Positions 59,135 through 59,715 of a stretch of 64,000 nucleotides of DNA are shown piece by piece. The stretch covers positions 1,600,001 to 1,664,000 of the forward strand of contig OY969696.1 in assembly GCA_963702005.1 (NCBI GenBank). The letters run 5' to 3'. How positions within the stretch are numbered: the first letter of the stretch is position 1; each line of letters opens with the position of its first letter. Both the position numbers and the translations under genes were made by a program. The DNA is from Candidatus Aminicenantes bacterium (GTDB taxonomy: Bacteria > Acidobacteriota > Aminicenantia > Aminicenantales > JAFGBC01). The notes under the pieces were generated by a model, which ran no database searches, was not told where the DNA came from, and saw only the letters and a program-made list of their open reading frames with translations.

Positions 59135-59218
59135 TGCCCAGGGCGGGACTCGAACCCGCATGGCCTTACGGCCGCGACATTTTAAGTGTCGTGCGTATGC
59201 CTATTCCGCCACCTGGGC
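59135..59218 (-). tRNA. tRNA-Leu(TAA); CCA not encoded
   Basis: GCCCAGGTGGCGGAATAGGCATACGCACGACACT-TAA-AATGTCGCGGCCGTAAGGCCATGCGGGTTCGAGTCCCGCCCTGGGCA, with a long variable arm. Confidence 0.93.
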
Positions 59219-59680
59219 TCTTTTTCTGCTACGATGCGTAGGCCTCAAGCTATGACAATTAGGACATAATATTCTTAAATTTTCCAGACGATTATCATTT
59301 CTATTGCCGTTGATGTGGTCCAATTCCAGCGGCAAATATCCATTTTCGGATAGCACGGCCCAGCCGCATTCCTCACAATGCTTTGGCTTCAAACCGGCGT
59401 TGAACAATCTGTTTTTGAGCTTAAAGCTTTGAACCGAACTGCCTAGGATTAACACGTTTGATAGAGGAATTCGAGGCTTTCCTTTGCCTTTAATACCTCT
59501 GTTCCATCCATGCCCTTTGAAATGTTTGATATTGAGTCCATGTTCCTTTATGTACTTTTTTATCTGTTCGTAATTTCCCCCCGCTCCTTTTAAGTTCAAT
59601 TTCTGGAGAACCTGCCTATAACTCGTAGAAGTTATGACGGCATTCTCCAAGTCACTCAGCTGCCATGACCTCCTTCTCAT
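59201..59680 (-). CDS. HNH endonuclease (159 aa) whose last 18 nt lie inside tRNA-Leu(TAA)
   Basis: CEECG...LELDHINGNRNDNRLENLRILCPNCH. The ORF ends GCC CAG GTG GCG GAA TAG, which is tRNA nt 1-18. Clearly AT-richer than the host. Confidence 0.92.
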   Translation of the reverse strand: MRRRSWQLSDLENAVITSTSYRQVLQKLNLKGAGGNYEQIKKYIKEHGLNIKHFKGHGWNRGIKGKGKPRIPLSNVLILGSSVQSFKLKNRLFNAGLKPKHCEECGWAVLSENGYLPLELDHINGNRNDNRLENLRILCPNCHSLRPTHRSRKRAQVAE

Positions 59681-59686
59681 GGCATG

Positions 59687-59715
59687 ATTATATGATATGG
59701 AAGTCGCCAAGACAA
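59687..59715 (-). promoter_or_regulatory. Promoter for a leaderless HNH-tRNA transcript
   Basis: TTGTCT-17bp-TATAAT-6nt-ATG on the minus strand, with no Shine-Dalgarno sequence. Confidence 0.65.

Follow-up and report, generated by a model that had tools for sequence, protein, structure and literature searches.

The closest described counterpart of the element considered here is the gene for SegB, a free-standing homing endonuclease of phage T4. According to the article on SegB (PMC2330249), its open reading frame (ORF) lies among tRNA genes with which it is co-transcribed, and the end of the ORF meets the 5′ end of a tRNA. Maturation of tRNA-Arg was proposed there to cut between the last codon and the stop, lowering segB expression, and the same is said to have been proposed for F-TflI and F-TflII of phage T5. 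SegB recognises a conserved tRNA-gene motif, and its homing goes with loss of tRNA-region markers of the recipient (PMC2330249). We have analysed a bacterial locus that is like segB in these respects of layout. It lies in a 64,000-nucleotide (nt) stretch of Candidatus Aminicenantes bacterium DNA (assembly GCA_963702005.1, contig OY969696.1, positions 1,600,001 to 1,664,000), hereafter the window, in which a gene for an HNH endonuclease runs into the gene for tRNA-Leu(UAA). We propose, with a probability of roughly two in three, that the locus is a mobile HNH cassette of the homing-endonuclease type, which has a leaderless promoter of its own, travels with tRNA-Leu(UAA) and has here replaced the native tRNA. 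SegB differs from the cassette in being a GIY-YIG rather than an HNH enzyme, and in belonging to the T4 tRNA cluster rather than to a bacterial chromosome. It also lacks its own promoter near the ORF, its Shine-Dalgarno sequence is held in a hairpin, the motif recognised is the T-ψ-C arm, and it cuts many tRNA genes and is not tied to one tRNA species (PMC2330249).

The core of the cassette consists of the following features.

59687..59715, minus strand: promoter, with −35 box TTGTCT (59715-59710), a 17-nt spacer and −10 box TATAAT (59692-59687), matching the consensus at 10 of 12 positions

59201..59680, minus strand: HNH endonuclease ORF of 159 codons plus TAG, with an N-terminal helical domain and a C-terminal Cys4/HNH domain

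59201..59218, minus strand: 18-nt overlap of ORF and tRNA, in which codons 155-159 (AQVAE) and the TAG are tRNA nt 1-18

59135..59218, minus strand: tRNA-Leu(UAA) of 84 nt ('type C', see below), called by ARAGORN and scoring 58 bits with the Rfam tRNA model (gathering score 29)

The original prediction, made from the letters of the window alone, had placed the HNH stop codon inside the tRNA and a TTGTCT-17-TATAAT promoter 6 nt before the ATG, and both statements hold. ARAGORN, Rfam and the sequence itself agree that the ORF ends within the tRNA. The protein terminates in ..RKRAQVAE*, and its TAG (59203-59201), read directly from the sequence, is nt 16-18 of the tRNA and falls in the D loop. 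The longest open frame (59201..59710) begins with TTG; the start conserved in the family, MRRRSW, is the ATG at 59680, which gives a protein of 159 amino acids. The six bases between TATAAT and ATG are CATGCC. When the minus strand was scanned from the TATAAT box to the tRNA, ORF interior included, no further promoter-like site was found.

In a search restricted to proteins of similar length, 5605 matched the HNH protein at E ≤ 1e-3. Identity is 54-93% for the best 120, and their sources are named as Patescibacteria phyla and Elusimicrobia; one locus is from Aminicenantes. Encoding loci were examined in a genome collection (the best 80 of at least 567 encoding stretches) and a metagenome collection (the best 80 of 564). 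A tRNA-Leu lies directly 3′ of the HNH gene on the same strand in all 80 genome loci (79 of them UAA) and in 78 of the 80 metagenome loci (all UAA). Taken together, and allowing that the two collections may share contigs, 158 of 160 loci abut tRNA-Leu, 157 of them tRNA-Leu(UAA). As the same abutment recurs throughout these related loci, the overlap in the window is not a chance event, and the linkage of homologues to a tRNA 5′ end, which the original prediction had named as its check, proved to be family-wide. The unlinked loci are L204, in which the contig ends 37 nt past the HNH gene, and L189, in which no tRNA was called within 150 nt 3′ of the gene and tRNA-Leu genes, including an intact tRNA-Leu(UAA), lie just upstream. 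In L088 an isoacceptor other than UAA abuts the ORF 3′ end, and here too the HNH gene is closely preceded by an intact tRNA-Leu(UAA). The arrangement in L088 and L189 may reflect a shift of target among tRNA-Leu genes.

The place of the stop codon varies among the 158 linked loci. The ORF stops 0-36 nt before tRNA +1 in 67 (32 genome, 35 metagenome), 64 of these within 9 nt; it stops inside the tRNA in 83 (41 genome, 42 metagenome) and past the whole tRNA in 8 (7 genome, 1 metagenome). No stop is therefore present ahead of tRNA +1 in 91 loci. Stops inside the tRNA occur in all frames, with gaps of −1, −6, −13, −15, −18, −21, −36, −47 and others, and at −36 (17 loci) the anticodon TAA itself serves as the stop. 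The C-termini of 40 fetched proteins resemble translated tRNA-Leu(UAA) in several frames (..AQVAE, ..PGWRNGIRATLKMS, ..ARVAERYTLTT). The tails AQVAE, ARVAE or AQVAK are found in 10 of the 11 closest proteins fetched, and the 18-nt overlap also occurs in L022; conservation of both tRNA and junction within this clade accounts for the overlap being shared by the closest relatives. By these comparisons the conserved and selected feature appears to be a leaderless HNH gene physically fused to the 5′ end of tRNA-Leu(UAA); the stop within the tRNA is not conserved.

The promoter was compared in 79 genome loci anchored on the start codon. In 54 loci a −10 hexamer matched at 5 or more of its 6 positions; shuffled sequences gave 10 of 79. 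The distance from the −10 box to the start codon is 6-7 nt in 61 of the 79, and a Shine-Dalgarno-like motif was found in none. The alignment consensus reads ..AATGGTAnACG..(about 17 nt including TTG)..GCGTTTnCCnTTTGnTATAAT..ATG. The HNH message is thus predicted to be leaderless, as the original prediction had it. Seven genomes of the same order as the window have the same tRNA type and no intact HNH gene detectable by tblastn. Their promoters and ORF stumps were read by eye: all seven keep a TTGTYT-17-TAnAAT promoter, joined to the tRNA by a leader of 10-70 nt, and six retain a stump of the ORF. In G001 and G028 the stump consists of the first codons, and in G013, G005, G030 and G012 of the last 14-26 codons including the CPNCHS motif; G004 retains the promoter only. 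The ORF interior was lost but the promoter kept in all seven, and the interior is therefore dispensable for the tRNA while the upstream promoter is not. This retention is the strongest argument at hand for transcription of the tRNA from the promoter that precedes the HNH gene, and together with the lack of a promoter-like site within the ORF it supports the proposal that one promoter serves both genes. A look for RNA data covering 58900-59900 listed no run with this locus.

The protein has the features of an HNH nuclease. It passes the Pfam cut-offs for both HNH_3 (33.2 bits, cut-off 24.8) and HNH (27.8 bits, cut-off 21.4), which places it among the HNH/His-Me finger proteins (PF01844, PF13392), with a beta-beta-alpha metal motif (catalytic His, Asn and metal-binding His) that is flanked here by two CxxC pairs. 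Residues C105, D121, H122, N130, N134, C139, C142 and H143 of the window protein are invariant across 34 family sequences, C102 is nearly so, and the mean column identity of the family alignment is 71%, across phyla. An AlphaFold2 model (mean predicted local distance difference test score 84) has two strands followed by a helix over residues 119-144. A Foldseek search of the PDB returned nothing at E ≤ 0.001; its top matches were the HNH domains of McrA, ScoMcrA and Cap5, and the N-terminal helical domain weakly matched the fold of winged-helix regulators. PDB sequences searched with a profile yielded nothing at E ≤ 0.01, and NCBIfam only sub-threshold matches to the ZorE and IscB HNH families.

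Around the core lie further features that bear on the history of the locus.

59127..59134, minus strand: T-run TTTTATTT directly 3′ of the tRNA, the conserved right end of the cassette (also present in G001, G005, G028, L152 and L153)

59699..59707, minus strand: right arm of an inverted repeat, GCGACTTCC, inside the promoter spacer, from the family alignment

59729..59737, minus strand: left arm of the inverted repeat, GGTAAACGC, a remnant of a tRNA-Leu D loop and D stem, 5′ of the −35 box

59761..59809, plus strand: 3′ part of a 'type N' tRNA-Leu(UAA), from nt 37 to the 3′ end (49 nt), broken just past the anticodon

59756..59770, minus strand: terminator-like hairpin CCGAG-GGATT-CTCGG with a T-rich tail, made from the end of the type N fragment and placed 3′ of the upstream minus-strand ORF that ends at 59846

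The cassette is an island of low G+C content, about 0.9 kb long (0.38-0.47 over approximately 58900-59800, compared with 0.60-0.65 in the flanks and 60% in the genome). The HNH ORF contains four TTA codons (codons 30, 77, 135 and 138), or 25 per 1000; the corresponding figure is 1.75 for a set of 2318 long ORFs with high G+C at third codon positions, used as a stand-in for the genes of the genome. The original prediction was right that these codons are rare in the GC-rich surroundings, and they make the nuclease depend on the tRNA that accompanies it; they are explained more simply by the low-GC origin of the cassette than by a regulatory loop.

Forty relatives from the order of the window were compared with it by DNA match. 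Seven match the window tRNA (83-96%; type C), 19 match the 49-nt fragment (type N), and none matches both. Type C genes are 92-99% identical to the window tRNA and type N genes 69-75%. The two types are split within two genera (G013 versus G019, G028 versus G033), and an intact tRNA-Leu(UAA) is present in 14 of the 15 type N loci fetched. Some HNH-linked tRNAs of Patescibacteria are up to 82% identical to the window tRNA, compared with a maximum of 75% for the native type of its own order. None of the 40 relatives has a DNA match to the ORF interior, and an intact HNH gene was found in none of eight tRNA loci fetched. Among 40 relatives of G043, a DNA search matched the HNH part in two and a short stump in a third. 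Empty sites were found in relatives of one Patescibacteria genome (L105-L109), where tRNA-Cys is followed by a spacer of 34-110 nt and tRNA-Leu, with neither the HNH gene nor the upstream module. Presence and absence of the ORF thus alternate as in a free-standing homing endonuclease gene, with empty sites in L105-L109 and stumps in L146 as well as in the type C genomes. Homing endonuclease genes go through cycles in which they invade, decay and are lost. They are usually recognised by a patchy distribution, empty sites, decayed copies and high identity across phyla, and the HNH gene, which shows all of these, is probably one of them.

The window tRNA is the only intact tRNA-Leu(UAA) in this 4.31-Mb genome, among 52 tRNA calls by ARAGORN. 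The one other call with anticodon taa, C1:3143121-3143209 (minus strand; L131), has no match to the tRNA model, its best being tRNA-Sec at 32.3 bits (gathering score 47). It is nevertheless the native type N gene at its syntenic place, with a 3′ flank that matches that of G023; it is 97% native from nt 27 on, and the preceding part is not tRNA-like. From its sequence, the native syntenic tRNA-Leu(UAA) is judged to be a pseudogene. About 120 nt upstream of it lies another tRNA 3′ fragment (about 3143320-3143370), with low-GC stretches on both sides, and the native locus at 3.14 Mb looks like an insertion hotspot. The fragment at 59761..59809 is 94% identical over its 49 nt to the broken native gene, and 83-94% identical to intact type N genes of relatives. 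It stands head-to-head with the cassette. The same junction is found with the 87%-identical HNH gene of L152, a shorter fragment in like orientation is found in L153, and an N-terminal extension of P0005 that mirrors the window fragment suggests the same arrangement there. Homology of the flanking genes ends at approximately 58900-58990 and at 59864, and these genes are not adjacent in the relatives fetched. In a comparison with four sets of DNA contigs, no contig spanned the cassette and no joined form lacking HNH was among those listed; a loose contig end at 59254 (X4), read by eye and not counted, resembles a deletion by which the promoter is joined to a 3′ stump of the ORF.

Upstream of the promoter, nearly every locus has a piece of a tRNA-Leu D loop and D stem, at 59729-59737 in the window, and in about 11 other loci the remnant extends to the full 5′ part of tRNA-Leu, nt 1 to approximately 26. 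The latter figure was obtained from 17 'full remnant' matches after the tRNA-Cys genes of L169, L181, L182, L188 and L216 and the whole tRNA-Leu of L088 had been dropped by eye. Remnant alignments scored above the 95th percentile of a shuffled control in 47 of 151 loci, and in 36 of these 47 the match ends at nt 23-27. A blastn-short comparison of the tRNA of each locus with its own flanks found almost no fragments, the remnants being too diverged or too short for it; they were later found by alignment. In our reading, the element originally entered a tRNA-Leu gene at a point between D arm and anticodon arm, and the forward piece is the 5′ part of that gene, displaced by the insertion. A cut in this region is compatible with three break points: the end of the remnant (approximately nt 26), the start of the broken native gene (nt 27) and the start of the window fragment (nt 37). 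Metagenome contigs that match the window from 59761 on carry ..GGCAGACGCAAGGGACTTAA, and show the native ..GGGACTTAA, ahead of that point.

An inverted copy of the same 9-11 nt sits in the promoter spacer, and the two arms bracket the −35 box. Pairing was observed in 75.9% of alignment cells, compared with 31-44% when the partner was slid, and the covariation score of 0.207 (shuffled mean 0.166) was reached by 1 of 500 shuffles. An ungapped scan was weak, with at least 8 of 9 positions pairing in 21 of 80 loci and in 21 of 400 shuffles, and the aligned count was used instead. The repeat could be an operator resembling the target, a hairpin that insulates against read-through from upstream tRNAs, or a scar of fold-back repair. 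I-TevI is said to repress its own gene through an operator that resembles its target.

These observations can be assembled into the following scheme. The free-standing HNH gene would occupy the 5′ leader of tRNA-Leu(UAA), and the one cassette promoter would transcribe both. Transcription would begin on the A of the AUG, or immediately beside it, and continue through the tRNA, the same RNA being nuclease message and tRNA precursor; because the ORF has no Shine-Dalgarno sequence for use in longer read-through RNAs, only transcripts from the cassette promoter would be translated. With the ORF packed against tRNA +1, a frame with no earlier stop would run on into the tRNA until a stop turned up by chance, and a stop within the tRNA would therefore be a by-product of compaction. 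Cleavage by ribonuclease P (RNase P) at +1 would cut the 3′ end of the message and, in the window copy, remove the stop, which probably helps to limit the amount of nuclease during production of the essential tRNA, as in the hypothesis published for T4 segB. Late ribosomes on the stop-less message would be rescued by transfer-messenger RNA (tmRNA). Both RNase P RNA (270 bits) and tmRNA are present in the genome, and the machinery that this requires is therefore there.

The nuclease would presumably cut a cassette-free tRNA-Leu(UAA) in the interval from the D arm to the anticodon loop, after which a copy with the cassette would serve as template for repair. Repair would bring in the tRNA as well, or its 5′ part at the least, and the unit would spread in this way between genomes and phyla. 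Here the imported tRNA would have replaced the native one, and the host would therefore depend on the cassette for reading UUA. The usual fate in related lineages would be decay of the ORF by deletion, the promoter and tRNA staying in place. A more specific version of these events, to which we give somewhat less than an even chance, has the element invading tRNA-Leu(UAA) at the junction of the D arm and anticodon arm and, instead of splicing out, repairing the DNA with its own promoter and a fresh copy of either the tRNA 5′ part or the entire tRNA. The old 5′ part would be left as the remnant, the leaderless nuclease message would be trimmed by RNase P, and the host would be addicted where its native gene had been destroyed; within this version the inverted repeat could be the target-like operator or the insulating hairpin.

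The original prediction had gone further, and held that the stop inside the tRNA is itself a selected regulatory device, by which each transcript yields either a full nuclease message or a tRNA together with a non-stop message cleared by tmRNA, so that a toxic nuclease is throttled. The overlap is real, and is identical in 10 of the 11 closest homologues fetched and in L022; no stop precedes tRNA +1 in more than half of the linked loci, there is a single promoter, the RNase P RNA and tmRNA are present, and the same mechanism was proposed for segB (PMC2330249). The claim of a conserved device nevertheless did not survive the comparison of loci, and we consider selection for it unlikely: in 67 of 158 loci the ORF ends ahead of the tRNA, nearly always within 9 nt of it, the place and frame of stops inside the tRNA vary, 8 ORFs run past the whole tRNA, and the agreement within the closest clade follows from the conserved tRNA sequence with no need for selection on the stop. 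Nor is the throttle idea, plausible as it is, new, since it is already a published hypothesis for phage tRNA-cluster endonucleases (PMC2330249).

Other explanations would take the HNH gene out of the homing class altogether. The conservation of the protein across phyla is very high, its N-terminal domain weakly resembles winged-helix regulators, and the conserved repeat around the −35 box shows some covariation, as might be expected of a domesticated host factor that acts as a regulator on the repeat or in processing or quality control of tRNA-Leu. Such a role is very improbable for a gene that is patchy among close relatives (2 of 40 relatives of G043, 0 of 40 in the order of the window) and has repeatedly been lost by deletion with the tRNA retained; all its catalytic and zinc ligands are invariant, and its phage homologues are annotated as homing endonucleases inside tRNA clusters. 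Repeats at tRNA attachment (att) sites usually comprise the 3′ part of the gene from about the anticodon arm. The two native-type tRNA 3′ fragments of this genome (49 and 60 nt) start at or near that arm, and the native locus at 3.14 Mb lies among low-GC stretches beside another tRNA 3′ fragment, which would suit an integrase-type island at tRNA-Leu(UAA) of which the cassette is a part or scar, with the fragments as att duplications and the HNH gene as a passenger. We regard this as hardly credible, because the HNH-tRNA unit recurs in 158 loci with differing flanks, mostly within tRNA operons, the low-GC stretch is so short, and the fragment beside the cassette is oppositely oriented, with the same junction in L152 and a shorter fragment in L153.

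Several points weigh against a homing cassette that has replaced the native tRNA. The loci examined are the top-scoring 80 of each collection, at 55-87% identity, and the counts describe that part of the family. The 49-nt native fragment is oriented opposite to the cassette, which would not be expected from simple homing and may have been left by end joining at a repaired break. Among the relatives fetched from the order of the window, none had a collinear empty site. An acceptor-stem test for chimeric tRNAs was positive in one of the eight full-remnant loci, L053, in which GCCCGAG of the upstream remnant pairs perfectly with the 3′ acceptor strand of the tRNA and the functional 5′ strand has one G-U pair; this pattern is what a recent chimeric repair, with an imported 5′ and a native 3′ part, would leave. 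The presence of an intact tRNA-Leu beside the nuclease leaves self-immunity unexplained, unless it is provided by the base pair 30:40 or by low expression.

The 30:40 pair was compared between HNH-linked and HNH-free tRNAs. It is C:G in 65 of 79 HNH-linked tRNAs from genomes, in 65 of 78 from metagenomes and in all 8 type C genes. Among 35 HNH-free tRNA-Leu(UAA) genes, 33 have G30 (14 of 14 type N; 9 of 11 and 10 of 10 Patescibacteria), paired with C40 in 31 and with T in 2; eight of 20 fetched stretches had been dropped from this sample as having no tRNA-Leu(taa), seven of them with caa or gag isoacceptors and L148 with an unassigned tRNA and a tRNA-His. G:C is found at 30:40 in 11 of the 79 HNH-linked genome tRNAs, and also in L145, which has an intact HNH gene, and L146, which has a stump. 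The pair is therefore not an absolute mark and is confounded by relatedness, and we treat it as a lead to a possible mark of immunity or co-conversion. Co-conversion may also be reflected in the replacement of the whole tRNA type in the order of the window, and here too relatedness is a confounder and exceptions exist.

Some neighbouring features were noted in passing. The minus-strand ORF at 57036-59006 (656 amino acids) has 85% DNA identity to genes of G024 and G028, two genomes placed in other families of that order; this is above the expectation for vertical descent, and horizontal transfer is possible. The minus-strand ORF at 59846-62062 (738 amino acids) appears from its translation to join an N-terminal multi-pass membrane protein to a dipeptidase-like C-terminal half through an odd Pro/Ser/Trp-rich stretch, and could be two genes run together by a frameshift or fusion. 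In HNH-free relatives of G043 (L110-L113 and L115), a different conserved insert, 186-793 nt long, occupies the spacer from tRNA-Cys to tRNA-Leu(UAA), and its end resembles a tRNA 3′ end (..GATTCCCGCC..GGCCTC); no Rfam family other than the flanking tRNAs reached its gathering score in these inserts. Elsewhere in the genome, additional tRNA fragments or pseudogenes may be represented by ARAGORN calls that have the anticodon at an odd position, namely Glu(ctc) at 1792026, Val(gac) at 3623827, Val(cac) at 3717067 and Arg(tct) at 4292938.

The element, if our reading is correct, occurs as thousands of proteins in Patescibacteria, Elusimicrobia and Aminicenantes, in the fixed order tRNA 5′ remnant, inverted repeat, leaderless promoter, HNH gene and tRNA. 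It would be a selfish nuclease made unremovable because it supplies the promoter, and here the sole intact copy, of an essential tRNA. It would also offer a natural system for asking whether tRNA maturation limits translation of an upstream ORF, an idea in print since 2008 of which we found no test. For annotation, it would follow that short HNH ORFs running into tRNA-Leu(UAA) are real genes. No paper describing a bacterial HNH/tRNA-Leu(UAA) element was found in the open-access literature, the candidate PMC10714607 being concerned with rRNA introns. The architecture that we have not found described combines a promoter of its own, a tRNA 5′ remnant with an inverted repeat, a single tRNA species, a place in bacterial chromosomes and spread across phyla.

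A group I intron of tRNA-Leu(UAA) was also considered for the window. The tRNA is uninterrupted, and an Rfam scan of 58500-60500 at E ≤ 1 returned the tRNA and two sub-threshold chance matches, with no intron family. In cyanobacteria and plastids, the group I intron in the anticodon loop of tRNA-Leu(UAA) is a mobile lineage whose host gene stays functional. The cassette resembles it as a mobile element specialised on the same highly conserved gene; it differs in having no ribozyme, and function of the gene is kept by the promoter and an intact or 5′-duplicated tRNA rather than by splicing.

The sequence relatives of the cassette in phages provide a further comparison. PHROG 10822 matches residues 1-155 (E 6.7e-42), and 251 phage records contain relatives with under 60% identity. 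The HNH gene has tRNA genes as neighbours at all five phage loci inspected, and at four of them a tRNA adjoins or overlaps its 3′ end; these homologues are 34-46% identical to the window protein. Three members of PHROG 10822 are full-length homologues (34-41% identity) situated between tRNA genes. In Edwardsiella phage PEi26 the order is tRNA-Leu, HNH, tRNA-Met, and the match ends on nt 1 of tRNA-Met. The gene of Citrobacter phage Maleficent ends 1 nt before tRNA-Leu and, unlike that of the window, has an annotated ribosome-binding site. In Gordonia phage GodonK the overlap is with tRNA-Glu, by 10 nt. The downstream tRNA species thus varies among these phages, unlike that of the cassette, and in PEi26 and GodonK the upstream tRNA lies 3-8 nt before the ORF and so, again unlike the cassette, leaves no room for a promoter module. 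The last 6 nt of the homologue in the T5-like phage SmurfNell lie inside tRNA-Leu. In T5 itself, ORF070, in the tRNA region that contains the F-Tfl genes, begins inside tRNA-Met and matches the HNH half only (46% identity to residues 80-159, E 4e-16). The F-Tfl endonucleases are, like the cassette, HNH-family ORFs in a tRNA gene context, a tRNA gene cluster in their case, and differ from it in their phage setting. If the proposal made here is true, the cassette is the chromosomal counterpart of the tRNA-cluster homing endonucleases of T4 and T5, and is specific to tRNA-Leu(UAA).

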